Source of the DNA: Crocinitomicaceae bacterium
GTDB taxonomy: Bacteria > Bacteroidota > Bacteroidia > Flavobacteriales_D > Crocinitomicaceae
NCBI GenBank assembly: GCA_028689775.1
Contig: JAQVCM010000011.1
Coordinates: 87,077-151,076, forward strand
Length of the DNA stretch: 64,000 nucleotides
Direction: 5' to 3'
Below are positions 41,729-64,000 of this stretch, in pieces. Position 1 is the first letter of the stretch, and each line of letters starts with the position of its first letter. A model generated the notes under the pieces. That model saw only the letters and a program-made list of their open reading frames with translations. It did no database searches and had not been told where the DNA came from. A program made the translations under genes and the position numbers.

Positions 41729-41764
41729 AACGGAGAAGATTGTTATCTTCTCCGTTTTTTTTAC
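41729..41764. terminator. bidirectional rho-independent terminator
   Basis: aacggagaagattgttatcttctccgtttttttt lies between the convergent ppiB (+) and T9SS gene (-). Confidence 0.6.
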
Positions 41765-43734: not shown

Positions 43735-43745
43735 TTTTACAATTG

Positions 43746-46675: not shown

Positions 46676-46861
46676 AATTAATTCAAGTTAGATTAAAACC
46701 ATTATTCAATTCACAGCAAGTTAAGAGAAAAATGTGATTTAATAGTTAATATTTAAACTGCTATATCATAAACGTTTGATTATCAGTAATAGTTGCTCAT
46801 TGTCTTGTTTTTCAATATAATTAATTTTTCTAAGACAACTAATTTCAAATTTGTAAAACAT

Positions 46862-46900
46862 AAAAAAGCCTGAAACATCAATGTTTCAGGCTTTTTTATG
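46862..46900. terminator. rho-independent terminator downstream of the djlA-like gene
   Basis: aaaaagcctgaaacatcaatgtttcaggctttttta is a 12-bp stem with flanking A/T runs. Confidence 0.55.
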
Positions 46901-46948
46901 TGATGGAATTTGGTTACTATAAAAGATTAAAAATGAAAATAATCTCGA

Positions 46949-47840: not shown

Positions 47841-49745
47841 TTACACTAATTCAATGCTGCGTTCGATGAATTTACTCAAAGCTTCACCTTTCAGCATTCC
47901 TTGTGAAAGCATTGCTAAATCAGTCAATTGTTTTACTTTTTCAACGCGAACTTGCTCGTCTGTATTTACTAAAATTTCACCAACTTTTGGGTGATTGCTA
48001 TTCACAACCAATTGGTAAGATTCTGGAAAAGCTCCGAAGAATCCTGCGCCACCCATTTTTTGTTGCTCCATCATTCGACGAATGAATTCTGGCTGCGTTA
48101 CAATGATTGGTGCTTCTGTCTCACTCATGCTTGCAAATTCAACTTTGAATTTCTCTTTGTTGACAGCGCCTTCAAAAATAACTTTCAATTTTTCCTCGTC
48201 ATCTTTCGATAATTTAGAAGGAATTTCTTCGTCTTTCTTGATCAAGTTGTCCAAAGTGTCTGAATCCACACGTGCGAAAGTCAAATCTCCTTCGTCTTGT
48301 TCCATTTTAGAAACCCAGTGCGGAACCAACGGTCCGTCCAATTCCAATACATCGTACGAACGATCTTTTGCCGCTTTCACAAATCCGTATTGTGCGTCTT
48401 TGTCGTTGGTGTACAAAGCAACTACTTTCTTGTCTTTATCCGTTTGAAGTGTCGCAATTTTTTCTTTGTATTCCGCAAGCGTATAATACTTTCCGTCCGT
48501 TGATTTCACCAAAGAGAATGCTTTTGCTTTTTCTGCAAATTTATCATCTGAAAGCGTTCCGTATTCTACGAATATTTTCAAATCTTCCCATTTTGACTCA
48601 AAATCAGCACGGTCTTTCTTGAACATTTCTGCTAATTTATCCGCAACTTTTTTGGTAATGTGACTCGAAATCTTTTTCACATTGCTATCGCTTTGCAAAT
48701 AAGAACGAGATACGTTTAATGGAATATCTGGCGAGTCAATCACTCCGTGAAGTAAGGTCAAAAATTCAGGTACGATTTCAGAAACACTGTCCGTAATGAA
48801 AACTTGATTACTGTATAAATTGATTTTATTTTTCTGAACTTCTACGTTTTCCTTGATTCTCGGGAAATATAAAATTCCGGTCAAGTTGAACGGGTAATCT
48901 ACATTCAAGTGAATGTGGAACAATGGATCTTCGAAAGACATTGGATACAATTCTCTGTAAAAAGAATTGTAATCTTCTGTCGTCAAATCTGCTGGTGCTT
49001 TCGTCCAAGCTGGTGCTGGATTGTTCACTTGATTTGGAACGTCAATCGCAACGCGTTTTACTTTTCCTGCATCGTCTTTTTCGCCTTCTGGAGAATCAAT
49101 GTATTCCGTTTTATTCCCAAAAATGATTGGAATTGGTAAGAATTTACAATATTTATCTAAAATCCCTTGAATTCTTGCTTTTTCTAAAAACTCGATGGAT
49201 TCTTCGTTGATGTATAAAACGATGTCCGTTCCTCGGTCTGCTTTTTCAATTTCCGTAATCGTATATTCTGGCGAACCGTTACTTTCCCACATCACCGCTT
49301 GCGAACCAGCGTGTCTTGAAAGTGTTCTAATCTCCACTTTTTCAGAAACCATGAACGCGGAGTAAAAACCTAATCCGAAGTGACCGATGATGCTCTCTGC
49401 TCCTTCTTTTCCTTCGTATTGTTTTACAAACTCTTCAGCTCCTGAAAATGCAATTTGGTTGATGTATTTATCAATCTCGTCGCTCGTCATTCCGATACCA
49501 CGATCCGAAATCGTCAATGTTTTAGCTGCTTTGTCTAAAATCACGCGAACTTGCAATTCACCGATTTCACCTTTAAATTCTCCTGTTGCTGCAAGCACTT
49601 TCACTTTTTGAGAAGCATCCACTGCGTTTGAAACCAATTCTCTCAAAAAGATTTCGTGGTCTGAATACAAGAATTTTTTAATGATCGGAAAGATGTTCTC
49701 CGTCTGCACATTAATTTGACCTTTTTTTACCTGACCTGTTTCCAT
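47841..49745 (-). CDS. htpG: molecular chaperone HtpG (Hsp90); start placed at the internal Met (METGQ..) of the longer ORF
   Basis: GHKL ATPase N-box (ELVSNAVDA), G-boxes, and full-length similarity to Hsp90. The 14-aa upstream extension is unlikely to be real. Confidence 0.9.
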   Translation of the reverse strand: METGQVKKGQINVQTENIFPIIKKFLYSDHEIFLRELVSNAVDASQKVKVLAATGEFKGEIGELQVRVILDKAAKTLTISDRGIGMTSDEIDKYINQIAFSGAEEFVKQYEGKEGAESIIGHFGLGFYSAFMVSEKVEIRTLSRHAGSQAVMWESNGSPEYTITEIEKADRGTDIVLYINEESIEFLEKARIQGILDKYCKFLPIPIIFGNKTEYIDSPEGEKDDAGKVKRVAIDVPNQVNNPAPAWTKAPADLTTEDYNSFYRELYPMSFEDPLFHIHLNVDYPFNLTGILYFPRIKENVEVQKNKINLYSNQVFITDSVSEIVPEFLTLLHGVIDSPDIPLNVSRSYLQSDSNVKKISSHITKKVADKLAEMFKKDRADFESKWEDLKIFVEYGTLSDDKFAEKAKAFSLVKSTDGKYYTLAEYKEKIATLQTDKDKKVVALYTNDKDAQYGFVKAAKDRSYDVLELDGPLVPHWVSKMEQDEGDLTFARVDSDTLDNLIKKDEEIPSKLSKDDEEKLKVIFEGAVNKEKFKVEFASMSETEAPIIVTQPEFIRRMMEQQKMGGAGFFGAFPESYQLVVNSNHPKVGEILVNTDEQVRVEKVKQLTDLAMLSQGMLKGEALSKFIERSIELV

Positions 49746-49932
49746 TTTTATGTTGATTTTAATATATAATTTATGCGTTTCGAGCACTTTGCTGTTACCC
49801 CATTCTCAATGACTATGCCAATGGATTTCAGGTGACAAAATGTCGGAAATTGAGCGTCTGTTGTCAGCCAAAAATGTTAATATTTCTATAAAACGTTCAA
49901 TTCTAAAAAATTAAAGACGTATCTTCGATGTC

Positions 49933-50283
49933 ATGAAGAGAATTACATTCATTTTAATCCTGTTTATTTCCTTTGGATTTGTATCTAAAGACAGCTATAC
50001 CGCAACTGGTAAAGCCAGTTTTTACCACGTCAAATTTCAAGGTAAACGCACCGCTTCCGGTGAAGTTTTTGATCAGAATCAACTAACAGCAGCTCACAAA
50101 TCTCTCCCATTCGGAACGATGGTTGAAGTGCGAAACTTGAGCAACGATTCGATTGTCGTGGTAAAAATAAATGATCGATTAAGTCAAAAATCAGGTTTTT
50201 TAATTGATGTGAGTACCAAAGCAGCAAAGCATTTGAATTTCATCCGAAATGGACATGCAAAAGTGAGTGTTAAAGAGATTTGA
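49933..50283 (+). CDS. RlpA-like double-psi beta-barrel protein
   Basis: Signal peptide. GKASFYHVKFQGKRTASGE...AAHKSLPFGT..VEV DPBB motif of the septal-ring RlpA family. Confidence 0.65.
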   Translation: MKRITFILILFISFGFVSKDSYTATGKASFYHVKFQGKRTASGEVFDQNQLTAAHKSLPFGTMVEVRNLSNDSIVVVKINDRLSQKSGFLIDVSTKAAKHLNFIRNGHAKVSVKEI

Positions 50284-50432
50284 AGGTGGATCCGATCGGT
50301 ATCGGAGGGCAGATTAATTAAAGTTACCAGCTGCGTCATTGCTTTTGGCGAAATAGATCATCCACAACCGAACGCCGAACACAAGCTGCTTTATATTAAA
50401 CATTAGGAAGTAAATAGTATCCGCCCGACCAA

Positions 50433-50987
50433 CTACACATCCAAAGTTCCAGGAAACAAGTCTTGTAATTTGTTGCAAGGATAATCAGCGATGACTTCTA
50501 GTGTTTTGTTGAGCCACTTGTCGGGGTTCACGTTGTTGAGTTTGCAGCAGGCAAAAAATGTGTAGAACATAGCCGTTTTTTGTGCGCCGTTGTGTGAACC
50601 GGCAAAAAGGTAGTTTTTGCGACCGAGTGCAACGGGACGGATTTTATTTTCGATAGCATTGTTGTCGATATGATAGTTGCCATTTTCAAGATAGGTCATC
50701 AGACTAGCCCATAATTTAGTACAGTACTCAATAGCTTTTCCAATGAGTGATTTAGGTAAAACGGCATTTCGTTCGCGATGCATCCATTGGCCTAAATCGT
50801 TGATGATTGGAAGCGCTTCCTCCAGCCGGAGAGCATGTCGTTCTTCTGCCGATAAATCTGCTAATTTTCGCTCAATGGTATAAAGTTTTTGGATTTCCTG
50901 CAATACGTATGATCCTCGCTTTTTATCTTGTAGCAATGCTTTTTCAAAATATCTGCGTGCATGCGCCCAACAAGTAAGGCTTAAACG
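50433..50987 (-). mobile_element. IS66-family transposase remnant, C-terminal ~185 aa only
   Basis: CWAHARRYFEKA and YLENGNYHIDNNAIENKIRPVALGRKNYLFAGSHNGA match conserved IS66 TnpC motifs. The frame is closed by a stop at 50988-50990. No tnpA/tnpB or N-terminal part is present. Local GC is elevated. Confidence 0.8.
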
Positions 50988-51046
50988 CTACGCAGCTTTA
51001 GCGAAGTTGCGGTTTTAGCCTTACTTGTTACCCACTGGCTTTCTTT

Positions 51047-52102
51047 CTATTTATTATGACATCTTATACTTTCATTGGGATAATATTTTTTCTTTAACCA
51101 AAATGAAACTCGAACCAAAAAGATAAGAACTGGAACTTCAACTAATGGTCCAACTACACCCGCAAAAGCCTGTCCGGAATTTAGTCCAAATACTGCTATA
51201 GCAACAGCAATCGCCAATTCAAAGTTATTTCCTGCTGCCGTAAATGAGACGGCTGCATTTTCCTTATAGGAAGCTCCCAGTGCTTTAGTAAAGAAAAAAC
51301 TGATGACAAACATTAAACTAAAATACAAAATTAAAGGAACTGCAATAATTAAAACGTCCATTGGAATTTCAACAATTAACTCTCCTTTGAGCGAGAACAT
51401 TATCACAATGGTAAACAAAAGCGCAATTAGGGTTGATGGTGAAATGGTTGGAATAAACTTTTCTGTGTACCACATTTCTCCTTTTAACCTTACCAAAATC
51501 ACTCTACTTAAAATTCCCATTAAAAAGGGTAGTCCTAAATAGATTGCTACACTTTCTGCAACCGTAGCAATTGATATATCCACAATAGCCCCTTCAAATC
51601 CAAAATACGGTGGAAGAACCGTTATAAAAATCCAAGCATAGAAACTATAGGCAAAAACTTGAAAAATACTATTTAAAGCTACCAAGCCTGCTCCATATTC
51701 GCTATCTCCTTCAGCAAGGTCGTTCCAAACCAAAACCATTGCGATACAGCGAGCTAATCCGATTAAAATAACGCCTACCATATATTCTGGATAATCACGT
51801 AAAAAAGTAATTGCCAAAACAAACATTAAAACGGGGGCAATTATCCAATTTAGAAAAAGTGAAATGGAAAGAATTTTAGTGTTTCTAAAAACTTTTGGCA
51901 AAAGCGCATAATTCACTTTAGCCAAAGGTGGATACATCATTAAGATTAATCCTATGGCTATGGGAATGTTCGTGGTGCCTCGACTCATTGAATCAATAAT
52001 GCTTGGAAATGATGGGAAGAAATATCCGACTCCCACGCCCACGAGCATAGCAATAAATATCCATAGCGTTAAATAATTATTGAGAAAACTGATTTTTTTC
52101 AT
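51047..52102 (-). CDS. acr3: arsenite efflux transporter, ACR3 family
   Basis: Ten TM helices, the ACR3 N-terminal motif ([13 protein letters not shown]), and placement in the ars operon. Confidence 0.85.
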
Positions 52103-52115
52103 GTATTACTTCTAG

Positions 52116-52532
52116 TCAATTATCGAAAATGTCTTTTTGCTGCTCAATCACTCCGTTTATATTGCACGATAACTTTACCGTATTGTAGATTGTGCCAAAT
52201 TTTTCAATATTCTTTTTTAGCAATGGGATATTTAAATTTTCATCAGAACTGTAAATCGTTAGTCTGTAATCGATGTTATCCATTTTCAAAGGTTTTTCCA
52301 TTCGTTTAGCTGACACATTTACTGTGGCTTTTGAATAAGTAAACTTCATCATAGCAGAAAATCGCTCGACATTTTTTAGCATACACGAAGCAAAAGCTCC
52401 TAAAAAAAGCTCGGCAGGATTAGGTAAAGTTTCAGCAGATTTTGAAGTTGTTCCAAAAGCTATGTCATTTTGCTTTATTTGAATAGCAGCGTCTTTATTT
52501 GAAAAAGATGATGCCCTAATTTGGTATTCCAT
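52116..52532 (-). CDS. OsmC/Ohr-family protein
   Basis: 138 aa with the conserved Cys pair spacing (ASCM...LSCNI) of OsmC-like peroxiredoxins. Embedded in the ars operon. Confidence 0.45.
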   Translation of the reverse strand: MEYQIRASSFSNKDAAIQIKQNDIAFGTTSKSAETLPNPAELFLGAFASCMLKNVERFSAMMKFTYSKATVNVSAKRMEKPLKMDNIDYRLTIYSSDENLNIPLLKKNIEKFGTIYNTVKLSCNINGVIEQQKDIFDN

Positions 52533-52569
52533 AATTATATCTATTTTATATTAGTCGTTTTGAAAATAG

Positions 52570-53205
52570 TTAAGAAGCTTTTATCTGAGAGAAAACGTAA
52601 AACAGTTCTGTTGCAATTTGCAGACTTCTTTCATTATACTTTTCTGCCTGTTGTGGTGTATTGTCAAATGCTTTTGGGTCTTCAAAAGTTATAGGAATTC
52701 GTTTTTCTGCTCCGCTAACAAATGGACAGGCTTCGTTTGCTGAATCGCAAGTCATAATTGCAGCAAATTCAGATTTCGGGTTAAAATCATCATTCAATCT
52801 TTTTGAAAATCCGATTATTGGATGCTGGTTGTACGCATATTTAATACTGTAAATTGAGTTCTCGTTTTTTGAAATAGTTTTAATCTGAAAACCTGAATTT
52901 TGCAAAGTTTCTGCAACGATTGGAAAAAGTGCCGTACTTTCTGTTCCACCTGAATAACAGAATACATTTTTGATATTGAAATGATAAGCTAAAGTTTGTG
53001 CCCAAACCTGTGATAAATGACTTCTTCGTGAATTGTGAGTACAGATGAAGTTGATTCTGATATCTTGCTGATTTGAAACTTTAGACTGTATAAATTCCGT
53101 TAGTGGTTGTAAAATTGCCTTACGTTCAGTTGAAATTGTTTGAGGATTTAAGGCCTTGATTACTTGTTCAATTTCTGAAAACATTGTTGATTTTGTTATT
53201 GACAT
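52570..53205 (-). CDS. arsC: arsenate reductase, LMW-PTP type, with an N-terminal extension
   Basis: CX5R P-loop (FICTHNSRRS) and a downstream Cys pair (CDSANEACP) of thioredoxin-coupled ArsC. Confidence 0.7.
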   Translation of the reverse strand: MSITKSTMFSEIEQVIKALNPQTISTERKAILQPLTEFIQSKVSNQQDIRINFICTHNSRRSHLSQVWAQTLAYHFNIKNVFCYSGGTESTALFPIVAETLQNSGFQIKTISKNENSIYSIKYAYNQHPIIGFSKRLNDDFNPKSEFAAIMTCDSANEACPFVSGAEKRIPITFEDPKAFDNTPQQAEKYNERSLQIATELFYVFSQIKAS

Positions 53206-53228
53206 TTTCTTAATGTTAAATTATTATT

Positions 53229-53696
53229 TTAGCAACAGCCACTGCCTGGTGTACAAGAAGATCCATTATTATATTCAGATAATTTAACTTTTGGTTTTTC
53301 ACTTGGTATGCCGCATTTATCTTTCGCCAAACAATCGGTTTGTTTATTAGTCAACAAAAAGTTTTTACCGTCAAAATCAAGTCCGAATTTCCCAATCGTA
53401 TTACCTTGATATTCCACTTCGATATCTAAATCTTCAATTCCTAAAATGCGTTCGGATAATTCAATGATGCTTAATAGTTTTTCTGGATGCAATCTGTGAT
53501 CATAGTCATTGGCGTTCCAAAGTTGGAAGTTCACTACCTTCTCGTTTCTCACAGTTCCGCCACAATCAATGAAGTGTTTTGTAACTTTTCCAACTTCTGT
53601 TACGTGAAAGTGGTTGGGTACTAATTCCCCATTTGGTAATTGGAAAGCGATCTTATCCAGTTTATTCAATTTGTTTTTAATTTCTGATAACTTCAT
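53229..53696 (-). CDS. DUF6428-like protein of ars operons with a Cys-rich C-terminus
   Basis: Positioned between arsR and arsC. C-terminal CTPGSGCC. The family assignment is from memory of Bacteroidetes ars clusters. Confidence 0.45.
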   Translation of the reverse strand: MKLSEIKNKLNKLDKIAFQLPNGELVPNHFHVTEVGKVTKHFIDCGGTVRNEKVVNFQLWNANDYDHRLHPEKLLSIIELSERILGIEDLDIEVEYQGNTIGKFGLDFDGKNFLLTNKQTDCLAKDKCGIPSEKPKVKLSEYNNGSSCTPGSGCC

Positions 53697-53751
53697 TTCT
53701 CTATATTTATTTGTTTATTGCGATTTAACGATTGATATAATGAAAAAATAA

Positions 53752-54060
53752 TTAGCAACAATCTGCTTTAGGAATGTCCTGATCTAAAAATTGATGCATT
53801 AACATTTTCATTTTAGTCCAGTTTTCACTGTCTATACAATAGCAGACTTTGACACCTTCGACAGTCCCTTTAATTAGTCCTAAGGTTTTTAATTCTTTTA
53901 AATGTTGTGATATAGTAGGTTGGGCAAGACCAATTTCTTCGGATAAATCTCCGCAATAGCAAGCATCAATTCTAAATAATTGTTGTAAAATAGCTACTCG
54001 AGCAGGATGTCCGAAGACTTTTGCGAATAGAGCGATTTCTTTTTGTTGGTCAGTATACAT
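53752..54060 (-). CDS. arsR: ArsR/SmtB-family metalloregulator
   Basis: Winged HTH (IGLAQPTISQHLKELKTLGLIK) and a metal-binding CYCGDL motif in helix 3. Confidence 0.8.
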   Translation of the reverse strand: MYTDQQKEIALFAKVFGHPARVAILQQLFRIDACYCGDLSEEIGLAQPTISQHLKELKTLGLIKGTVEGVKVCYCIDSENWTKMKMLMHQFLDQDIPKADCC

Positions 54061-54399
54061 TTTTTATATCCCTTCATTGTTTAATTGCAATATTACGATA
54101 AATAATTGAATAGTCTATTCCTTTTTTAAGTTTTGATAGGAACTTAAAATCTTTTACTGGAAATGGTTATGGAAAAATGAAACATTTTTGGTGTATTGCT
54201 CTTTTTTTAGCTTGTGGGTAACGGTTTTCGGCTTTGCGAGGGAGCGGATTTTAAGCACTACCTTTGATACGAAGCACGAAAGTTCAAATTTACGAAAAAG
54301 TTTCAATCGAAGCACTTCACCCGCTCTCTTGTAAAACCGATGTTGAACTAAACCTACGGTAGCCTTCCGCAACTATCCGTACATTTAGCGTTCACTTAA

Positions 54400-54798
54400 T
54401 ACATTTTATATGACAACGAAAAAAAAACGCCGGAAGAAGTAAGGTTCAATAAAGTCCTTAATCGTGCCTGTCGCGAAGTTAATGGCTTTTCAGAACTACT
54501 TCATCGTTTTGAACGGAATATTTCTGTTTTGGGCCGTAGTAAGAAAACGTTTGAGAATTACAGTCGCCATGTTGCAACAATGGCTTTGCACTTTCAGTGT
54601 TTGCCAACTGATTTGGATGCTGAACAAGTGCAAGAATATCTTTTTGAACTGCAAAAACGCAGTAAAACACCTTCGCAATCGTACTTTAAGCATACGGTTT
54701 ATGGACTTCGATTTCTCCTGAATGGATACAAAAAAGAGAAGCTGATTTACTTCCTTGTACGTATTATCACTTGGTTTTCACCTTGCCAAGTGAATTAA
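54400..54798 (+). pseudogene. tyrosine recombinase/integrase N-terminal (SAM-like core-binding) fragment, with no catalytic domain
   Basis: ..RSKKTFENYSRHVATMALHF..LDAEQVQEYLFELQKRSKTPSQSYFKHTVYGLRFLLN has the helical pattern of the integrase N-terminal domain. The frame ends after ~130 codons with no RHRY catalytic region. Confidence 0.4.
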
Positions 54799-54823
54799 AT
54801 TCGCTGCCTTTCTTTTGTTCGCA

Positions 54824-55363
54824 TTAATTGTTCAGTTTTAGTTTCATCATTATGTCGGTCTGCTCGTCATTGCCCAATTTGAAAATATGTTTGTCAAACT
54901 CTACGAAACCGTTTTTCTTATAAAAGTTTATAGCTCTTGGATTTTCTTCCCAAACGCCTAACCAAACAAAGTCAGAATTTTTCTGTTTTGCGACTTCAAT
55001 TGCTTTGTTATACAGAATTTGTCCAACACTCTTTCCGTGGAAGTCTTTCAAAACATAAATTCTTTCAATTTCAAGTCCTTTGTCGTCTTGAAGTTCAGTT
55101 TGTGATTGTCCAAAATTTAGTTTTAGGTAACCAATTACATTGTCGTTATGTGTCGCAAAATAAAACTCTGCGTTCTTGTCGTTAAGTTCAGTTGTCAATT
55201 TGTCGATAGAAAAACCTTCGTTTAAATATTTCGTCATATTTTCTTCGGTATTTCCTGTCGAAAAAGTTTCATAAAAAGTTTGTCTGCCAATTTTCTGTAA
55301 TTGGTCAATGTCGTCAAACGTTACCTTTTTAATTTTAATTTTTGTCATTTCTTTCGTTTGCAA
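54824..55363 (-). CDS. GNAT-family N-acetyltransferase
   Basis: Acetyl-CoA binding motif HGKSVGQILY and overall GNAT fold signatures. Confidence 0.7.
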   Translation of the reverse strand: MQTKEMTKIKIKKVTFDDIDQLQKIGRQTFYETFSTGNTEENMTKYLNEGFSIDKLTTELNDKNAEFYFATHNDNVIGYLKLNFGQSQTELQDDKGLEIERIYVLKDFHGKSVGQILYNKAIEVAKQKNSDFVWLGVWEENPRAINFYKKNGFVEFDKHIFKLGNDEQTDIMMKLKLNN

Positions 55364-55618
55364 TTTCGTCTTCTAAGGTTGCCACTAACGTTTTGCGGCT
55401 GGTGCTCTGTCGTCTGTCCTTGCTAACCATTGTCAGTATTGAGTTTCCGTTTCATTGAGTGTCGGCTGTGCGTTGCGTTTTTAATTTTTTTGAAGGGTCG
55501 GGAAATTTTTTAAAAACAATTTTTTTCTTGCGGTGGCTTTGCAAGCTCTTTGACAAAGCTTTGGTCTGTGCTTGGGCTTGTGCGGCTTTGGCAATGTGCT
55601 TGCAAATAGGGTTGGGCA

Positions 55619-57349
55619 TTATGTAAATACATCTCTAATCAATTTCTTTATTGTAAGGTTCTCAAGTTTAGATGCAATTGGTGATACATTGTCTAAGTTG
55701 TCTTTCCAGTGCATTCCTTCATTGTAAATTATTCCAAGCAGATAATGTGATTCGGGTGAAATAACTCCCATTTCTTCTGCTTTTTCTAATTTTGGTCTTG
55801 TTTTTTTAGTTGTCAAAAATGTGGTTTGAGCAACTGGATTTTGTAATCTATTATATGCTATTTCTTCAATTTTCACTCTTACTCCACCACATACTGCAAA
55901 AGGACAAAATTGTCGGTCATTCAAGTAATTATCTATTTCGCTAAACAGAAACTGATAAAAGTTATCAGACTCGCCCCAAAGCTCTCTTAAACCAAGTCCA
56001 TTAAACTCAGCTCGTTTGTTTATGTGTGTTGGGTAAAAATGAAGTAGGTGTTTTGAAACATCATCTTTAATTGAAATATGTTCTCTATTTCTGAGCAGTC
56101 TAACGATGCTTTGATTGACTTGAATATTTGATTTTTCGAGGTAGTAAACTTTTTGTTTGCTAAAAGCAAAATTCTTAAAATAGTTTGGGTTTAAATGTGT
56201 CAGAATGATTGGGTAAAGTCGCTTCCCTTCATCATTGAAATCTTTTATGAAAGTAGTAATGTAATATTGTGCTGCGGTCAGGTTTGCATCATCAAGGTAG
56301 TCGAACACTTCATCAATTATCAGAATGTTGGCATCTTTTTTTAAATGCTGTCTTGCTCTGAATAACATTGAAATGAAAGTCAAAATATCTCTTTGACCAT
56401 TTGATATATGAATAGCTTCTGGAAATTTCACAACTAATTGTCCACCTGTCTGACTGGCTCTAATTCCTTTCCAAGTGCAATTAAAAGTTGAGAGAGTATG
56501 TTCAAATCGCTGTTTGTCTAATTGGTAATTGCTATAGGCACAAGCTGCCTTGAAATTGTTAGGGTTATTGTTGTATAACCATATTAACTGAATTGCCACC
56601 AAATAGGCTTTGGATTCCGAATTATACCCAACATCAAATTCGTGTATGAGATTACCAATTGTATTTAAATAATCTATTTGTTTTAAGTCATTTAATCTGT
56701 TTGCCGTTATCCAATCTGTTAAAACATCTGCTGTGCCCGCCTGTTGATTTATTTCGTCAATAATAGCATTGATTCGAAGTTGAATTCTTTGACCATTAGC
56801 CCTTTCTAATGCTTGGTAATTCTGACTTAATTTTTCAACCAGCTTTAAATTATTTAGTGCAGCATTACGATTGGGTAATACCCGTGAATTTTGACCAAAT
56901 CTTCCTTGTGATGCCCTGAATTGATTACCAAAAGAAACATTATTAGGTATTCGGTCAACCAAAACTACATCTTTGATTTCAAGCCTTGCACTTGCTCTGC
57001 CGAATTGACTCCCAACTCCTTTGGGCTTTGTTGGATTGTTGATGACAAAAAAATCTAGTTCAGAACTTATTGTGTTTGTTGTTGCAGTGGCTTCAAGTGT
57101 AGCAATAGATGAATCAGGTCTTTCGTATTCGATATAAATTCTTGGTGGTAACGCTGGATTCTCCTGATGGTAGTTTTCTTCTGTTAAGTTAATTCGCCTG
57201 CTATTCATTTCATTGAAAGCCACAGCAAACGAACTTTTACCAAAACCGTTTGGAGCAACTAAAAGACTTGGTTTATTTGGCCAAATATCCAATGTAAACC
57301 TCTTGTGGCCTATGCCTTTTATGTTTTCTATTTCAATGACTTTAAGCAT
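55619..57349 (-). CDS. ABC/OLD-like (AAA_15/AAA_21-type) ATPase with an uncharacterised ~150-aa C-terminal domain; defence-associated
   Basis: Walker A (APNGFGKSSF), signature-like SNGQRD, Walker B/D-loop (ILIIDEVFDYLDD). The C-terminal domain has conserved CPFAVCGG and His residues. It sits 11 nt downstream of the MTase. Confidence 0.7.
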   Translation of the reverse strand: MLKVIEIENIKGIGHKRFTLDIWPNKPSLLVAPNGFGKSSFAVAFNEMNSRRINLTEENYHQENPALPPRIYIEYERPDSSIATLEATATTNTISSELDFFVINNPTKPKGVGSQFGRASARLEIKDVVLVDRIPNNVSFGNQFRASQGRFGQNSRVLPNRNAALNNLKLVEKLSQNYQALERANGQRIQLRINAIIDEINQQAGTADVLTDWITANRLNDLKQIDYLNTIGNLIHEFDVGYNSESKAYLVAIQLIWLYNNNPNNFKAACAYSNYQLDKQRFEHTLSTFNCTWKGIRASQTGGQLVVKFPEAIHISNGQRDILTFISMLFRARQHLKKDANILIIDEVFDYLDDANLTAAQYYITTFIKDFNDEGKRLYPIILTHLNPNYFKNFAFSKQKVYYLEKSNIQVNQSIVRLLRNREHISIKDDVSKHLLHFYPTHINKRAEFNGLGLRELWGESDNFYQFLFSEIDNYLNDRQFCPFAVCGGVRVKIEEIAYNRLQNPVAQTTFLTTKKTRPKLEKAEEMGVISPESHYLLGIIYNEGMHWKDNLDNVSPIASKLENLTIKKLIRDVFT

Positions 57350-57360
57350 ACTTTCGATTA

Positions 57361-60300
57361 TTAATCTTCATCCTCCTCACTCTCATTATCCACCAAAACT
57401 TCCTCTTCCAATTCATCCAATACAATTTCTTCTTTGGCTTCTATGCCGTAAAGGAGGTTTACCATTTCGTCTATTTCGGCTTCTATGGGGCGGAGTTGGG
57501 CGTTCATTTCTGCTCGGTCTATTTCTCCTGCAAAATATTCTTTCTTGATTGCCAAACATTCATCAAACTTTTTGTTGAATGCTTTCAGTTCTTTCTCTGA
57601 AGGAATAATAACTGGTAATTTTTTTATGTCATTAACAGGGATATTTACACTTGTATTGAAGAACTCCCTTAACAATTTGAAATGTAAATAGCTATTCAAT
57701 GTAAGGACAAAATATTTATCGCCAAGAAATGTCTGGTCAAACAAAGCTCTCGACCCATCGTCATTGACAGTTTTTCCTTTCAATCTTGCCTTAAAGTATG
57801 AACTATTTGGGTTTAAAACATTTGTATAACAGAATCCTTCTCGGAAGAAGAACTGTGGGTTTCTTATTACTGGATTTCCTTTGCCTTTGCCAGAATTTTC
57901 ATATAGCCACTTTACAGTTTCTCTGTTCCACAAAATGAAATTATATGTTTCCATAAACCAGCGATTACCTTCTTTATCGCCTTTATCGTATGGCACATAA
58001 ATTTCTTTTTTTGTTTTTATTCCATTATTTTTTTCGTCATCGGTTAATTCATCAACATTGGCAATTTCATCATTTGAAATAATTCGATAAATAAACCCTT
58101 TCCCAAAAACTAATGCACCAAAAGATGATTTGATGTCGTCAAATAATATTCTAATTTCTTTTTCACTTAAGGCATCTAAAACTTCTTTGCAAGTATCTAA
58201 ATCAGATATGTTCCTAAGTATTTTAAACTCGTTTCTAATCTTGGGATGTTTATCTATTGCTTTGAGTAGTTTTTCAGCTCGGCGTAAAGGAATTTTATCA
58301 GCTAAATAATGATTCTCAGATATGCCAATAAACTTACCATTATCGGCAGTTGACATACCAGCTCCTCCATCTGTTAGCAAACCAATCAATGTTAAATTAC
58401 CCTGCTTTAAATTCTTAACATTTTTCTGAAGCTCTCCTCTATTTCTTTCAATTTCTCTTGATGTTTCAATCTTACTCCACCAAGTGTCAAAAACAGGTCG
58501 GGCAGGTTTTACTATTTTTTCCAAAATCTGACAGTTGTATTCTGTTGGTGAGAAAATTGCGTAATTGATGGCTTTACGGTATGGTTCAAATGAAACTTTG
58601 AATTTGAGTAAAGTTGAATTTTCGTCTTTGAATACTTTGTCGCCATCGCAAGTATGAGAATGTTTCCATTTTGGTGTGTCGTGTCCTAATGCACTGAATG
58701 TTCTATCTAAAATACGTTCCCAACTAGAAAGATTTTCTTTTGATGTCCGAATCTGTTTCCATTCTTCTTCTGTAATATTGAAGGATTCAGCATTTGGTTT
58801 TCTAATGTCAATGTAAACTGTCTCAGGTTTATCAATGGCTCTTTCCTTCTTAACCGTGAAAATGGCAGTGTCCACCAATGCGGAAAATGCTTTAGGAGTA
58901 TTGATAATTTCGGTAACTCGGCATACAGGCAATATTTTTTCCTCGTTTACAAATAGACCTTCCTCTGATTGATTTGTTTTGGCAATGCCTAAGAAATGCA
59001 TTCGCATATTCTTTTTGGTTTGCAAAGTCAGGAAAGTGTCGGAAGTAATGTAACTCAACAAACCGCCTGATTTCAGTAATTCAAGCCCTCGGAAAGTAAA
59101 GTGATTGTAAAGGTCATCGCAAAAGCCGTATTCTTCTTCTAACTTTTTGCTAATACCCATACTGCTGATGAGTTTGGTATTTACATAAGGCGGATTGCCA
59201 ATAACAATATCAAAGCCCGGGTTTTTGCTTTCCTTGTTAAATATTCCAGGGAAAACAACTCTTTCAATGAAATAATCTTTAATGGTGTTTTTAAAGATTG
59301 CCAAATTGCCCAATTCTTCAGCCAATGCCTTTTCTTTTTTGCGGAGTTTGGCAATTTCTTTTTCGGCTGCTCGGTTTGAAACCAAATGATTGATACCCGA
59401 ACGAACAGAATTTAATTGTTTGGTAATATTGTCGCTTTGGCTGTCAACAACTCGTTCGAGTAATTTTACAATCTTCTCTTTTATTTCTTCTTTGGTTCCG
59501 TGTCGGTCGCTTTTGGTAATGAAGTACTGATTTTCGAGATTGACTAATTCTTTCAACAATTTCTCATTGTCAATTTGGTCAATCAAATTATTCAGATTTT
59601 GGTCTTTGTAAAAACGGAACAATGAGTTTTTCTTGTAAAACTTAAATTCAAGGTTGGGCAGTGGTTTCAGGTTGTAATTCTCTTTTGAGAAATCAACCCT
59701 TTGCTCCACAATCAACGAAAGCCAGCAACGTAGTTTGGTTATTTCAATCGCATATTCCAACAAGTCCACACCAAACAAACAACTCCGCAATAAGCCCAAT
59801 TTTTTCACATAGCGAATTTGCCCATCAGCAAACATTTCAGAAATATGCTCTCTGAATTGCTCGTCTTTTGACTTCATCATTTCAGCCACCCACACTTTGC
59901 CTTCGGGGTCAACGGTAGTTAGCACTTGCATCATTTCTTCCAACATACCCATTGGGAAAGCTCCCGAACCACAAGCAGGGTCAAGCACGGTTGTTTCCAA
60001 AAGTTTGTGAATGATGGTTTTGCTGTTTTCGGGTTTTATTTCAGTATCGAGATGTTTCAATAAAGTGCTTCGACACATATAAGAAACCACAGGACGGGGC
60101 GTATAGAAGGCACCCGCATTTTTACGGGCTGCTTCTTTGGTATCATCGCTTTGTTCTGCCAACAAGTTTTCAAAAATTCTACCCAACATTTCAGGGTCAA
60201 CGGCAATTTCTTCTTCAAGTGGTGTGTTCTCTGCAATGGTGAATTTGTATCGGGCAAGAATGCTGTTCAGTCCTTTTTCTCTGTCTAAAAACAAGGTGTC

Positions 60301-61398
60301 GGGAACAGCAAAGGCATTATTCACTTTCCCCAAATCGCACCAGTCGTTTGGATGAATGTCGAACAAACCTCCATTCAGGTAAGGTGAAAAGAAAATAGCA
60401 TCTTTGATAGCTTTTTCATCAGAAAAATTTGCAGCATAAACATCAAATACTTTTTTATCACGGTCTTTCTTTTCGCTGTTCAGTGCGTTAAAGAAAAGGT
60501 TTTGCAGAATGAATTTATAATAAGCTGTGCCTTTGCTTTTGGGTTTTATCAGGTCGTTTTCTTCTCCATTTTCAAACTCAGGCAACAATAAACCATCTTT
60601 CACCACTTTGAGTTCTTTCAAAAACCAAATAAAAATCAATCTGGCAATCAGACGAACGGTAAAATCTTTGTGTTTTTCAGAACCTGAATTTTGATCAGGA
60701 ATTTTAATGTCTTTTACTGCTTTATTGAACCAAGCAATAATGTCTTCATAAAAATTCTTGTTGAGAACTGAAATGGAGAATACCGATTGCCAGTAGTAAT
60801 ACAACTGCGTGAAACTCTTAACGGCTTTGCTTCCTGTGGTTGGAATCACCAATTGTTTGAGAATGGCTATATGTCCTCTGTGTGGTTGATTGGTGTCAAT
60901 GTCTTTCAGTAAAGAGACCTTGCCAACTTTTTCACCTTCCCGCCATTCCTGTTTGTATTTAATGCGTTCACTGTTGGCAAACGAAATCAGGTTGCCATAT
61001 TTAAAAATGATGGTTACTGGTGTGTAAGGGAAAGTGCGGTTAAATGCTCTTGTAATTTCAGCTAAATGGCTTCTTGTAATAGGTAAGCCGTCTTTTCTGT
61101 TTTTCAGTGTTACGCCAAAAAGCAACAAGCCGTCATAATCGGCTTTTAGTTTTTTTACTTGTGCTAAATTTTTGAATGTTTCAGTGCCTTCAAAAATGGC
61201 ATCGTTCACCATACCCAAAGCAAATACATCTTCAATGAGTTTATGTGCTTCGTTGGTAGCTTTGAATCGTTCGCCCAATACATCAACTGCTGATGCAGGT
61301 TCGTCAGCCAAATAATCAACTGGCACTTTGAGTTCTTCAAAAAACGCTTTTAAAGCATTTATGAAAGATTCGCTATGGAATTTTGAAATTGAATTCAT
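57361..61398 (-). CDS. MmeI/PglX-family (Eco57I-like) N6-adenine DNA methyltransferase, 1345 aa
   Basis: Motif I DPACGSGAF and motif IV GNPPYV. Family-specific upstream motifs: SPYLNGGLFD, VDPEMLGRIFENLL, GAFYTPRPVV. Confidence 0.85.
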   Translation of the reverse strand: MNSISKFHSESFINALKAFFEELKVPVDYLADEPASAVDVLGERFKATNEAHKLIEDVFALGMVNDAIFEGTETFKNLAQVKKLKADYDGLLLFGVTLKNRKDGLPITRSHLAEITRAFNRTFPYTPVTIIFKYGNLISFANSERIKYKQEWREGEKVGKVSLLKDIDTNQPHRGHIAILKQLVIPTTGSKAVKSFTQLYYYWQSVFSISVLNKNFYEDIIAWFNKAVKDIKIPDQNSGSEKHKDFTVRLIARLIFIWFLKELKVVKDGLLLPEFENGEENDLIKPKSKGTAYYKFILQNLFFNALNSEKKDRDKKVFDVYAANFSDEKAIKDAIFFSPYLNGGLFDIHPNDWCDLGKVNNAFAVPDTLFLDREKGLNSILARYKFTIAENTPLEEEIAVDPEMLGRIFENLLAEQSDDTKEAARKNAGAFYTPRPVVSYMCRSTLLKHLDTEIKPENSKTIIHKLLETTVLDPACGSGAFPMGMLEEMMQVLTTVDPEGKVWVAEMMKSKDEQFREHISEMFADGQIRYVKKLGLLRSCLFGVDLLEYAIEITKLRCWLSLIVEQRVDFSKENYNLKPLPNLEFKFYKKNSLFRFYKDQNLNNLIDQIDNEKLLKELVNLENQYFITKSDRHGTKEEIKEKIVKLLERVVDSQSDNITKQLNSVRSGINHLVSNRAAEKEIAKLRKKEKALAEELGNLAIFKNTIKDYFIERVVFPGIFNKESKNPGFDIVIGNPPYVNTKLISSMGISKKLEEEYGFCDDLYNHFTFRGLELLKSGGLLSYITSDTFLTLQTKKNMRMHFLGIAKTNQSEEGLFVNEEKILPVCRVTEIINTPKAFSALVDTAIFTVKKERAIDKPETVYIDIRKPNAESFNITEEEWKQIRTSKENLSSWERILDRTFSALGHDTPKWKHSHTCDGDKVFKDENSTLLKFKVSFEPYRKAINYAIFSPTEYNCQILEKIVKPARPVFDTWWSKIETSREIERNRGELQKNVKNLKQGNLTLIGLLTDGGAGMSTADNGKFIGISENHYLADKIPLRRAEKLLKAIDKHPKIRNEFKILRNISDLDTCKEVLDALSEKEIRILFDDIKSSFGALVFGKGFIYRIISNDEIANVDELTDDEKNNGIKTKKEIYVPYDKGDKEGNRWFMETYNFILWNRETVKWLYENSGKGKGNPVIRNPQFFFREGFCYTNVLNPNSSYFKARLKGKTVNDDGSRALFDQTFLGDKYFVLTLNSYLHFKLLREFFNTSVNIPVNDIKKLPVIIPSEKELKAFNKKFDECLAIKKEYFAGEIDRAEMNAQLRPIEAEIDEMVNLLYGIEAKEEIVLDELEEEVLVDNESEEDED

Positions 61399-64000
61399 TA
61401 TTTACTTATGATAAACCAAGTGATTAAATCGAAATTGTCTTTATTGAATTTCTGCGAAGCAGATCCTTCATTTTTTAATTTTTGAATGGTGGTTTTACTT
61501 CCTGATTTCAGTTTGTTCAACATATCGAGTGAAGCTTTTCCCATTTTTTGTTTTACTGTGCCATCTTCCTGCACTTCTTCTTCCGTTGCCTGACTTTTTA
61601 ACCAAGTGCTTAATGCAGCCGATAAATGTTCGATAGATTTTGGTTCGCCTTGGTCAATGGCTTTTGGCACAAAACGAACTTCTTCTTTGTGTTTTGCCAA
61701 AGCGTCCAATACTTCTTTTTGGTTTAAGAATACCGATTTGCCCGAATGGTCAATGTAAATGAGTTCGTAACCCTTGTATTCAAAATTATTGGCTTTGGCA
61801 GGTTTGCTTGGATAGCCCAACAAGGCAATCATTCCTTCTTGTGGGCAAACTTCCTGAATGGCTTTAAACCCTGTGTAAATGCCGTTTGGAAGCGATTTAT
61901 AAAACTGCTCGTTCTTTCGCAGTTCTTCTAGCAATTCCTGACGGAAGGTTTCTAAAGACAAGTCATCAAAGCCTAATGATTTTTCGGTGTCAATTTCATC
62001 CCAAGAAGATTGCATTTGCTCCAACATCCTTGCTTTTTGTTTCTGCTCCAGATTTTCATCTTCTGCCATTTCTTTGAATGTGTCGGAGAAATCTAAATGA
62101 ACTTCCGAACCTGCCAATTTCATTGCAGCCATTCTTTGTTCAATTCTGCCTTGTAAATTCAAATAAGAATTGATGTTGTTGGATGGCCAGAAATTAATGC
62201 CAAATATTTTTGTGTTTGGCGAACCCAAACGGTCAATACGACCCATTCGTTGAATAACACGAACAGGATTCCAGTGAATATCATAGTTAATTACCAAATC
62301 ACAATCTTGCAAGTTTTGTCCCTCACTCAAAGCATCCGTTGCTATCAGAATATCAATCGGGCTTTGCAGTTTTTCATAAGTCCGTTTGTCGTTCTCTGCA
62401 ATCCAATGTTGCCATTCGTCAAACTGTTGGTTTAAAGAAAGTTCTTTGCTTGATGGTTCAAATTGCCATTCCTTTTCTCTGTATAATTTGGTGAAAGGAG
62501 CAAAGCGTTCCAAAATAGGTTCATACTTTTTGGTTTCTCCTTCTTCATTCCAAACGGTCGAAGTATCGCCACTTACAGCAGCCACTTTATCAAAACCTCT
62601 TGATTTCAGTTGGTCAAAGAGATAAAAAGCGGTGTCTTTGTAAACGGTAAAGATTAAAACTTTTGGATTACCATTATTATCACCTGACTGTCTTTTCTTT
62701 ATAATTCGGTTTATCAGTGTTTCCAGTTTATCATCTTCGCTGCTGTGGTTGCGTGGCTTCTTAATCTCTTTCGCAATTTTCCTTTCAAACTGAATTAAGT
62801 TCGATTGCAATAATTGCAATGCTTCAATATCTGCTTTTAAATCCTTCTTGTAGTTCTCAATATTGCCCGAACGGTCAATGTCCACCAATCGGGTTTTACG
62901 TTTCTTGCCTAAGGTGAAATCTTCTATTTGAGCTAAAATATCATCATCATCAAAGAGGGAAGGTTGGGCTTCATTCCAACCTGTTTCCTTCTTAGTTTCC
63001 TGATATTGCTTTATTCTATCGAGTGCATTTTGATGATGAGCTAAAATTTTTTCTGTGGTTGATTGAAAAGAAAACCAAGAAGATTCCAGTCGTTTCACCA
63101 ACAAGATATACATCATCTTCACCAAGAAATGGTCACGCTGTTTTTCATCGTGTAAAATGTCGGCATCTTCAAATTCGTCAATGTAAAATGAAGGTTGATA
63201 ACCCGAAAGCATTGGCGGAAAATGGTCGAAGAGTTCTTCAAAGCTTTCAAAGTTTCCGATTTGTTTGGGTGTGACGAAAATGTTTTCGGGCTTTGATTTT
63301 TTCGGAAACTCCAAACCGTCCTGATGTCCTTCAATCATTTTGCGGGTTCGTGCAACTGTTAAAGAATCAGTCAGTTTGAAAAAATTAGGCGGTAACTTCT
63401 TAATGAATTCACCAATTTTTGGGTCAGGTTCTTGTGTCCATTCGTTGAATGCCTTTTGTGCTGCTCTAAATGTGTAATCAATGTTTTTAATGTCTAATGA
63501 TTCTTCAAAACCTTTTGCATTGCCGCTAACAATTAGTTTGAATTGATTCCGAATATCCATGAACGAATTATTGATTGGCGTTGCGGAAAGCATCAATACT
63601 TTCACATCTTCGTTTTGTGAAAGAATCTGGTCAACCAAAAATTTGTAGCGTTTGGATTTATCGTTTCGCAAATTGTGGCTTTCGTCAATCACAAACAATT
63701 TGGGCTTTTCATTCAAAAACATTTTGTCTGCTCGGTCGTGGTATTTCTCCATCAAATCGTCTGTAAGGTCAGTATGAAATCTCAAGAAATATTCAAACTG
63801 GTCTTTCTCAAATTTAGAGTTTTGATTCTTCTGGTAAATTCGCCAGTTGTATTGCAGTTTCTTTGGGCAAATTAAAATCACTTCACGTCCTTGTAACTGA
63901 TAGAATTTCATTACTGCCAAAGCAGTCCAAGTTTTACCCAAACCCACTGCATCGGCTAAAATTGCTCCGTTATGTTTTTGAAGCATTTTAATCAAACTCA
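61398..64000 (-). CDS. SNF2-family helicase; the N-terminus runs off the window end
   Basis: Motif I (LADAVGLGKTWT), motif II (DESHNLRN), motif III (LSATP), motif VI (QRMGRIDRLGS). Its stop overlaps the MTase start (TAATG). Confidence 0.8.
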   Translation of the reverse strand, partial: SLIKMLQKHNGAILADAVGLGKTWTALAVMKFYQLQGREVILICPKKLQYNWRIYQKNQNSKFEKDQFEYFLRFHTDLTDDLMEKYHDRADKMFLNEKPKLFVIDESHNLRNDKSKRYKFLVDQILSQNEDVKVLMLSATPINNSFMDIRNQFKLIVSGNAKGFEESLDIKNIDYTFRAAQKAFNEWTQEPDPKIGEFIKKLPPNFFKLTDSLTVARTRKMIEGHQDGLEFPKKSKPENIFVTPKQIGNFESFEELFDHFPPMLSGYQPSFYIDEFEDADILHDEKQRDHFLVKMMYILLVKRLESSWFSFQSTTEKILAHHQNALDRIKQYQETKKETGWNEAQPSLFDDDDILAQIEDFTLGKKRKTRLVDIDRSGNIENYKKDLKADIEALQLLQSNLIQFERKIAKEIKKPRNHSSEDDKLETLINRIIKKRQSGDNNGNPKVLIFTVYKDTAFYLFDQLKSRGFDKVAAVSGDTSTVWNEEGETKKYEPILERFAPFTKLYREKEWQFEPSSKELSLNQQFDEWQHWIAENDKRTYEKLQSPIDILIATDALSEGQNLQDCDLVINYDIHWNPVRVIQRMGRIDRLGSPNTKIFGINFWPSNNINSYLNLQGRIEQRMAAMKLAGSEVHLDFSDTFKEMAEDENLEQKQKARMLEQMQSSWDEIDTEKSLGFDDLSLETFRQELLEELRKNEQFYKSLPNGIYTGFKAIQEVCPQEGMIALLGYPSKPAKANNFEYKGYELIYIDHSGKSVFLNQKEVLDALAKHKEEVRFVPKAIDQGEPKSIEHLSAALSTWLKSQATEEEVQEDGTVKQKMGKASLDMLNKLKSGSKTTIQKLKNEGSASQKFNKDNFDLITWFIISK

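Follow-up and report, generated by a model that had tools for sequence, protein, structure and literature searches.

Background

The closest known kind of arrangement to the one described here is the integron cassette array without integrase (CALIN), or the sedentary chromosomal integron. Our subject is a segment within 64,000 nucleotides of a Crocinitomicaceae bacterium chromosome (assembly GCA_028689775.1, contig JAQVCM010000011.1, positions 87,077 to 151,076), a stretch that we call the window. The segment holds a five-gene arsenic-resistance (ars) operon, a GNAT gene, two mobile-element remnants and a set of palindromes, and from position 50325 to at least 55618 it is, in our judgement, probably a decayed integron-like gene-cassette array. 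Like CALINs and sedentary integrons, the arrays discussed here have same-strand cassettes, imperfect palindromes of ~60-140 nt with AAC...GTT ends, a crossover at G/TT (the slash marks the cut), cassettes whose first bases are complementary to their own inverse core, recurrence of a cassette from array to array, a crossover point occupied by a group II intron, and cassettes with defence genes (in locus L172). Unlike them, they show no canonical integron integrase (IntI), attI site or Pc promoter, their cassettes can be operon-sized (~3.2 kb, 4-5 genes, with an own regulator), the body of the palindrome that follows a given inverse core varies between contexts, and the host belongs to a Flavobacteriales lineage.

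Reviews list the Bacteroidota among the phyla with integrons (PMC8618304, PMC9668308), whereas a preprint treats the phylum as previously without them (bioRxiv 10.1101/2024.07.02.601686), in disagreement with PMC8618304. Attachment-site-like (attC-like) stem-loops have been described in the 3' untranslated region of aph(3')-IVb in Riemerella anatipestifer, with no recombinase named (PMC13148043, 2026). That case resembles ours in that a Flavobacteriales genome took up a single-gene unit with no homology at its flanks, the gene being followed by an attC-like hairpin; it differs in that no cassette rule was named, and its likeness to the site family reported here is by description only. A tandem of a XerD-like integrase and an IS91-family transposase (ISWz1-type) is reported beside tetX, catB and aadS in Chryseobacterium, Myroides and Elizabethkingia, including next to tetX/catB in Chryseobacterium and in integrative and conjugative elements of Elizabethkingia; these papers give no mechanism and do not mention a link of the units to attC-type sites (PMC11194056, PMC10973501). 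For the ars genes, our literature search found neither a description of ars as a gene cassette nor a mention of DUF6428, and an identical-protein look-up for ACR3 returned nothing on record.

Boundaries of the proposed ars and GNAT cassettes

Read along the minus strand, the window passes from a block of defence-like genes through a degenerate site-like spacer to the GNAT gene, then through an inverted integrase+IS91 relic and a 136-nt attC-type site to the ars operon, and from there through a short strong palindrome, an IS66 piece cut at GTTGGGC and a 92-nt relic to a boundary at 50324, beyond which lies rlpA (Table 1). In the organisation that we propose, a GNAT cassette would come first and an operon-sized ars cassette second; each would begin just after the G of a GTT core and end in an inverse-core box (xxxxxxAAC) complementary to its own start, with attC-type imperfect palindromes separating the cassettes. 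Two insertion sequences (IS) would have entered the array later and then been mostly deleted, an integrase+IS91 unit landing between GNAT and the attC site preceding ars, and an IS66 landing downstream of ars. The genes themselves had been recognised in a first-pass annotation made from the sequence alone, and here its calls stand: profile searches bear out the complete minus-strand ars operon (arsR, DUF6428, arsC, OsmC, acr3), the GNAT gene is PaiA-like and lies at 54824-55363, the IS66 transposase fragment is a C-terminal open reading frame (ORF) at 50433-50936, and the N-terminal tyrosine-recombinase fragment matches Phage_int_SAM_4 on the plus strand.

The ars cassette starts TTACCCAC after G54222 (CG/TTACCCAC) and ends GTGGGTAAC at 51035-51027, and its start and end are complementary at 9/9 bases. 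Its DNA is 92-95% identical in two other loci, L088 and L089, where homology stops at 51026/51028 and 54225/54226 in both, while all flanks differ among the window, L088 and L089, giving three contexts for one unit; in the three closest ars loci protein identity to the window is 92-100%. The operon is of the ACR3 type, with an intact ArsR repressor, an arsenate reductase and an ACR3 efflux pump, and plasmid homologues of its ArsC are annotated as protein-tyrosine-phosphatase. The standard order, arsR-DUF6428-arsC-acr3, is that of nearly all of the 80 metagenomic loci in which a close relative of DUF6428 occurs, and it recurs on Empedobacter and Pedobacter plasmids. The window has the same order as the Bacteroidota arsR-DUF6428-phosphatase-acr3 operon, from which it differs in two ways: its OsmC-like gene, placed between arsC and acr3, is shared with the closest relatives only (L089, L090, L155), and the attC-type framing is confined to the window lineage and a few others. 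As side observations on the operon, almost every Bacteroidota ars locus that we examined has kept DUF6428, and the tails of DUF6428 (...SSCTPGSGCC) and ArsR (...KADCC) are cysteine-rich, which suggests that they may bind metalloids.

At least seven contigs from different samples encode the same 174-aa GNAT protein, and between 54803 and 55388 (in some loci 55393) their DNA agrees at 99.5-99.8%. Upstream, five different sequences meet the cassette, each at ...AAC G/TTAGTGGC. Where a copy is intact, its last bases are GCCACTAAC, which complements the cassette start exactly. What comes after the intact copies varies: in L170, L171 and L175 it is a 136-nt site (48 bits, E 1e-10), and in L172 and L173 a different, longer palindrome. 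In the window and in L174 the GNAT sequence is cut at 54803 by an IS91 piece, and the upstream neighbour in L174 is a different one. In L173, a group II intron (RF00029, 47.9 bits) has its 3' end at precisely the start of the GNAT cassette; group IIC introns that target attC sites are known.

Further observations concern neighbours of GNAT genes or of attC-type sites. In a more distant ars locus (L092, 6720-7953), arsR is immediately preceded, on its own strand and without an intervening IS, by a GNAT gene whose product is 72% identical to that of the window; GNAT and ars may therefore have been adjacent before IS91 was inserted. Among the cassettes that adjoin this GNAT or this attC family, there are ones with a GmrSD_N defence protein (L172, 812-2185) and a DUF6364/PIN toxin-antitoxin pair (L085, 13842-14517). 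These defence-type cassettes parallel reports of chromosomal integrons storing defence systems.

Table 1. Features of the segment and its immediate flanks, in minus-strand order (positions are those of the window)
Feature	Position	Strand	Remarks
AbiLi-like ATPase, methyltransferase and helicase block	55619..63995	-	PADLOC, Pfam
GC-rich spacer	55389..55618	-	hairpin 55538-55606; GCCCAAC 55617-55611; attC-like 3' end
GNAT (PaiA-like) cassette (proposed)	54803..55388	-	starts TTAGTGGC after G55389; 3' inverse core and attC lost to IS91 relic
Integrase+IS91 relic	54342..54806	+	left end GTTGAAC/TAAACC; integrase pseudogene fused to transposase piece
attC-type palindrome, 136 nt	54215..54350	-	between integrase remnant and ars cassette
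ars cassette (proposed)	51027..54221	-	3.2 kb; five genes and own 160-nt upstream region
ArsR	53752-54060	-	HTH_5, 46 bits
DUF6428	53229-53696	-	profile search
ArsC, low-molecular-weight phosphatase type	52570-53205	-	weak LMWPc match (E 1e-3); CX5R motif visible
OsmC-like	52116-52532	-	profile search
ACR3	51047-52102	-	TIGR00832, 441 bits (cutoff 283)
Short palindrome, candidate short attC	50966..51034	-	18-nt arms, 25-nt loop; directly after ars inverse-core box
IS66 remnant	50417..50974	-	last 558 bp of 2,240-bp element; C-terminal third of tnpC
GC-rich relic, 92 nt	50325..50416		between boundary and IS66 end; outside IS66 homology
Left limit of variable segment	50324..50325		two independent assemblies (L003, L004) stop there
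RlpA-like (DPBB) gene	49933..50283	+	PF03330, TIGR00413; left flank, outside variable segment

The attC-type sites and the start/inverse-core rule

The rule that joins the start of a cassette to its end can be read in L088, where three small same-strand ORFs, each followed by a ~136-nt palindrome, precede ars. The palindromes there have the form ...ATAAC AGCACCTA...GTGCTTCG...TAGCTGC-AAAC/GTT..., and what follows each GTT can pair with the xxxxxxAAC box in the palindrome one step further downstream, as the integron rule has it. We tallied this complementarity in ten comparisons covering seven distinct cassettes, namely the three of L088, ars three times (window, L089, L088), one from L085 that has since been enlarged by IS insertions, tet(X2) on plasmid p63039, and GNAT twice. 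All 9/9 bases were complementary in 7/10 comparisons, with ars in the window and GNAT in its intact copies among them, and 7-8/9 in the rest. Direct reading of a four-gene unit of 3.2 kb in L170, the eighth cassette, also gives 9/9, between its start GTTAGCGTT and its inverse core AACGCTAAC.

The palindromes themselves form a family with a conserved structure. Five foreign ~136-nt palindromes could be aligned with 86.6% of cells paired, and compensatory changes are present in 10/15 inner-helix pairs; 0/500 shuffles reached the observed values. A covariance model, R1, was made from these five sites, with none from the window. It matched the window site over its full length on the minus strand with 41.3 bits (E 2.6e-8), the palindromes flanking ars in L088 and L089 with 21-37 bits, the site after GNAT in L170 with 48 bits, the site directly after tet(X2) on p63039 with 68 bits and a site on Sphingobacterium plasmid pWB1 with 98 bits; the 1.27 Mb around htpG from 80 relatives yielded no match at E <= 0.1. 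A hidden Markov model made from the three L088 sites alone missed the window site, which was found by nhmmer once two L085 sites were added (E 0.006, with the window excluded from the model), and then with structure by R1. In the window site the inverse core GTTCAAC lies at 54348-54342 and the crossover G/TT at 54222/54221. The short palindrome after ars has a DNA fold of -20.5 kcal/mol (z -4.5).

The properties expected of a CALIN can accordingly be listed for the window: R1 finds two attC-type sites on the minus strand (54350-54215 and, weakly, 51020-50978), 3.2 kb apart where a spacing within ~4 kb is expected, the first bases of the ars and GNAT cassettes are complementary to their own inverse cores, and the same cassettes are found in different arrays with breakpoints at G/TT (GNAT with five flanks, ars in three contexts). 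The GC-rich spacer upstream of GNAT begins with GCCCAAC right after the ATPase stop and ends with the family-typical attC 3' end CAGCCGCAAAAC/G. By eye, resemblance to attC sites had seemed to extend through 55364-55618 and also to 50325-50416, and we discarded it as unsupported by the model except for the ...GCAAAAC/GTT end of the former.

Two minor features touch these sites. In L088, an Rfam DUF805 RNA motif (1012-1079, 78 bits, above the gathering score) lies in the leader of the first cassette ORF. The spacer upstream of GNAT contains a 55-aa, very basic ORF (55452-55619), whose ATG overlaps the ATPase stop (TAATG) and which is probably not a gene.

Two insertion-sequence remnants

The IS66 remnant is 79-81% identical in DNA to four IS66 copies in L085, of which the complete ones are 2,240 bp long, carry tnpA, tnpB and tnpC, and have terminal repeats GTATCCCCCCGACCAAC...; one complete copy is surrounded by an 8-bp target duplication. 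Protein homology reaches ~50978, and profile matches are to PF03050/PF13817 and NF033517. In keeping with the family, the fragment has the C-terminal DDE domain, the IS66_C motif and a terminal repeat of the same type, the right terminal inverted repeat being intact at 50417-50437 (GTATCCGCCCGACCAACTACA, once in the window). Unlike a complete IS66, it keeps only the last quarter: there is no second terminal repeat anywhere in the 64 kb, no duplication, and no full set of tnpA, tnpB and tnpC, so that it is a remnant and not an element. Homology to IS66 begins in the window at CTTGTTGGGCG, and the truncation point is an internal GTTGGGC that abuts the palindrome after ars. Being placed exactly there, the cut fits either recombination at a secondary core-like site or a 6-base microhomology deletion, and we infer the former. 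The idea that the arms of the palindrome after acr3 are largely IS66-derived was rejected, as the alignment shares CTTGTT only. Likewise rejected was the view, taken from homologue lists, that the IS66 and integrase families persist as fragments only, for intact genes exist for both.

The second remnant is a piece of an integrase+IS91 unit. The integrase begins with the ATG at 54410 (MTTKKK...), is frameshifted in an A9 run at 54419-54427 and loses homology near 54720, after ~103 codons; in that stretch its identity to the N-termini of family members, themselves fragmentary, is 63-77%. The following 87 nt (54720-54806), unnoticed in the first-pass annotation, encode EWIQKREADLLPCTYYHLVFTLPSELNSL. 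These 29 codons match residues 75-103 of an IS91-family transposase at 83% identity; in L087 this transposase follows the homologous integrase, and it scores 318 bits on NF033538. What survives is 465 bp of a ~2,330-bp unit. Intact units, with a 948-nt integrase and a 1,098-nt transposase in ~2.33 kb, are found on the plasmids p63039 of Myroides odoratimimus and pWB1 of Sphingobacterium faecium (L168, L169), their neighbours there being tet(X2), catB, aadS and erm(F); the intact integrase of pWB1 is WP_260950206. The left end CGATGTTGAAC/TAAACCT is common to the window and the ISWz1-type unit; the window copy differs in its frameshift and in an internal deletion that fuses the two genes, so that in place of an integrase ORF, a Y2 HUH transposase and conserved ends only the left end and 103 + 29 codons are left. 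A protein from an NCBI metagenome-assembled genome is 99% identical to the integrase fragment and, together with the nearest HtpG matches, assigns the window to a Crocinitomicaceae genome; an identical-protein look-up for that NCBI copy returned nothing on record.

In 5/5 copies examined, the left end of the unit (GTTGAAC/TAAACC) abuts an attC-type palindrome that is followed by opposite-strand cargo: tet(X2) on p63039, a 107-aa ORF in L087, ars in the window. A 70-nt stretch with GTTGAAC between the integrase start and the first palindrome is likewise conserved in 5/5 copies, and the integrase is part of the IS91 unit. At the right end stands GTTCAAC, then a hairpin. The unit therefore obeys the cassette rule itself, since the GTTGAAC with which it starts can pair with this GTTCAAC. 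For the N-terminal half of the integrase the closest profile is that of integron integrases, TIGR02249, below cutoff; homologues of the relic reach 91-110 bits per half (cutoff 265) and are ~31% identical to IntI1. A Logan contig of the same strain (L002) ends at 54371, 30 bases inside the left end of the unit, as would be expected if this repeat occurs several times in the sample.

One peculiarity of the integrase start is that its poly-A run is out of frame in the window (A9, 54419-54427) and also in L087 (A8, ~6040), intact homologues reading MTTKKK...; this could reflect slippage-prone phase variation or a homopolymer sequencing error.

Limits and composition of the segment

On the left, two independent metagenome contigs (L003 and L004) are 100% identical to the window at the rlpA end and both finish exactly at 50324, and for that reason we place the left limit of variable sequence here; on the right, the segment continues past the end of the window. 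The 92-nt relic next to the limit had no match, folds weakly and is not recognised by R1. A protein identical to the RlpA-like protein of the window adjoins htpG on other contigs, and htpG stays together with a TerB/DnaJ gene in 80 related genomes, while rlpA, IS66, ars, GNAT and the defence genes were found within 10 kb upstream of htpG in 0/80 related Crocinitomicaceae genomes. Consequently the gene order is not a conserved part of the core genome of these relatives, and the first-pass view of the segment as accessory and mosaic stands. HtpG identity to the closest reference genomes is no more than 88%, their genes upstream of htpG are unrelated ones, and in the family as a whole this flank is variable; with relatives so distant and a neighbourhood so variable, comparison with related genomes defined no clean empty-site allele.

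Other parts of the first-pass picture fared less well. The background it put at ~33% GC is 35.4% for the whole window, and of the three spacers it called GC-rich, 50284-50432 and 55364-55618 are so (44.3% each, at the ~97th and >99th percentile for their lengths), whereas 54150-54450 is not as a whole (38.2%), its GC-richness being confined to the 136-nt palindrome at 54215-54350 (43% GC). By GC, GC at third codon positions (GC3) and tetranucleotide profiles, the GC-rich parts are the IS66 relic and the spacers only, and neither ars (33.6% GC, ordinary profile) nor the defence genes have a foreign composition; the GC and k-mer comparison that the annotation had suggested thus did not set the ars operon apart. 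A search for att-like flanking direct repeats, also suggested there, gave only chance-level matches and nothing credible. There are no tRNA genes in the 64-kb window, and an Rfam scan of 49500-56500 gave no match. With no tRNA or att target in 64 kb, no credible repeats and an ordinary composition of ars and the defence genes, the segment lacks the marks of a classical genomic island.

Alternative explanations

The first-pass annotation saw the IS66 and integrase remnants as the ends of one integrative element, which would have brought ars and the defence genes as a block and then decayed. That remnants of mobile elements bracket ars, and that the whole segment is missing next to htpG in 80 relatives, would agree with this. 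However, the IS66 and integrase+IS91 pieces match separate elements with their own ends and so come from two unrelated insertion sequences, neither a tRNA target nor flanking direct repeats were found, ars and GNAT occur separately elsewhere with different neighbours, and L174 has the same GNAT and IS91 relic with another upstream neighbour. Each of ars and GNAT is separately mobile, rather than the two having been carried in together by the remnant integrase, and we regard a single element as very improbable. Delivery in the manner of insertion sequence common regions (ISCR) is also improbable, to a lesser degree. Here the IS91-family rolling-circle transposase would have moved the DNA by its integrase-proximal end (ars in the window, tet(X2) on Myroides p63039) through one-ended transposition, the palindromes being bystanders or termination signals. 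ISCR-type co-mobilisation of adjacent genes is established for the IS91 family, and the constant order of unit left end, palindrome and opposite-strand cargo in 5/5 copies agrees with it, but ars has the same boundaries in L088 and L089 with no integrase+IS91 unit in the DNA examined there, GNAT cassettes move without the unit, and the unit follows the cassette rule itself (GTTGAAC start, GTTCAAC near the right end).

Several points speak against a cassette array. An ordinary chromosomal variable region, in which the palindromes are terminators or repeats of the REP (repetitive extragenic palindromic) or MITE (miniature inverted-repeat transposable element) kind and the breakpoints come from homologous recombination between them, would be favoured by the poor structure of the 136-nt site and the spacers, by the lack of a nearby integron integrase, by the differing palindrome bodies, and by the absence of attC-type sites from most of the 80 metagenomic ars loci. 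The 136-nt site of the window folds no better than shuffled sequence (z +0.9), and because of this poor folding on its own it is probably degenerate; R1 gives only a weak match for the palindrome after acr3 (19 bits, E 0.012, 51020-50978), and does not recognise the spacer 55364-55618 as a whole, whose 3' half is unstructured, or the GC-rich stretch 50325-50416. The ars unit brings a regulator and promoter region of its own and exceeds the usual cassette size by far. No IntI, attI site or Pc promoter of the canonical type was found, the only recombinase in the window being the 103-codon relic, and the C-terminal match of its homologues to TIGR02249 skips profile positions ~170-238, which hold the IntI-specific insertion. 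Palindrome bodies also differ after the same inverse core (GNAT in L170 and L172, ars in the window and L089), so that the cassettes do not carry their own attC unchanged; classical integron cassettes keep their attC, and GNAT and ars here do not. The difference between contexts suggests an exchange at both ends of the site. Against a mere variable region, however, stand breakpoints that fall with single-base precision on G/TT and AAC with unrelated sequence on the other side, a cassette-specific 9-bp complementarity that has no reason to exist in terminators, the compensatory covariation of the stems and the group II intron that ends exactly at one crossover point, and we consider this explanation unlikely.

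A possible mechanism and its wider bearing

If the segment is a decayed cassette array, the cassettes would move by tyrosine-recombinase cleavage at the G/TT of folded attC sites, and we infer that the enzyme would be the IntI/XerD-like integrase that travels with the IS91 transposase. It is possible, though we hold it only tentatively and think it on balance doubtful, that the Flavobacteriales have a distinct integron-like system, in which an IntI/XerD-like recombinase without the IntI extra domain, in tandem with an IS91 transposase, recombines ~136-nt attC-type palindromes at both core boxes and so moves genes and operons (ars, a rhodanese/TauE operon, GNAT, tet(X2)). Plasmid resistance genes that adjoin such sites or units (ermF, catB) may have moved in the same way.

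Were the cassette reading true, a whole arsenic-resistance operon would act as an integron-type cassette in a phylum in which integrons are barely described, and the "island" of the window would be a worn-down piece of an array whose two mobile-element remnants are later intruders and not the vehicle. The wider interest lies in the site family common to resistance plasmids and in the candidate recombinase, for which the window is a worn example: in clinical Myroides and Sphingobacterium, plasmids have sites of the same family flanking tet(X2) and near erm(F). For Chryseobacterium, Elizabethkingia and Riemerella, papers have noted tetX, catB, aadS and aph(3')-IVb next to "XerD + IS91" as well as homology-free integration, with no mechanism given. 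The sites, the rule that links cassette start and inverse core, and the proposed enzyme together make this question directly testable.

Neighbouring genes and other parts of the window

The defence-like block upstream of the spacer comprises an AbiLi-like SMC-type ATPase of 576 aa, an Eco57I/type IIG-like methyltransferase of 1345 aa and an HKD+SNF2-type helicase (PADLOC C3a139, E 6e-58) that runs off the window; as a block it has no clean match to any single named system. The same three genes are on one Logan contig of the same strain, which ends at ~55536 and ~63902 and is the only contig with the methyltransferase.

Elsewhere in the window, a long run of more than 35 small plus-strand ORFs (~130-280 aa) with short gaps occupies 7011-31021 and encodes repeated TonB_C proteins, one TPR protein, one Methyltransf_31 protein and many proteins without a Pfam match. 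We rejected this run as a second array, having found no attC-like palindromes or model matches there. Between the TerB/DnaJ and peptidyl-prolyl isomerase (PPIase) genes, 41761-46675 holds genes for a CHU_C-domain protein (657 aa) and an S8 peptidase (809 aa) and a 169-aa ORF, none of which has a homologue in that interval in the closest relatives (88% HtpG identity); its tetranucleotide profile is the most atypical in the window (z up to 4.1). A perfect 21-nt inverted repeat with a 2-nt loop (46858-46901) stands between that 169-aa ORF and TerB/DnaJ; it matches the attC model weakly, at chance level, and is probably a bidirectional terminator.

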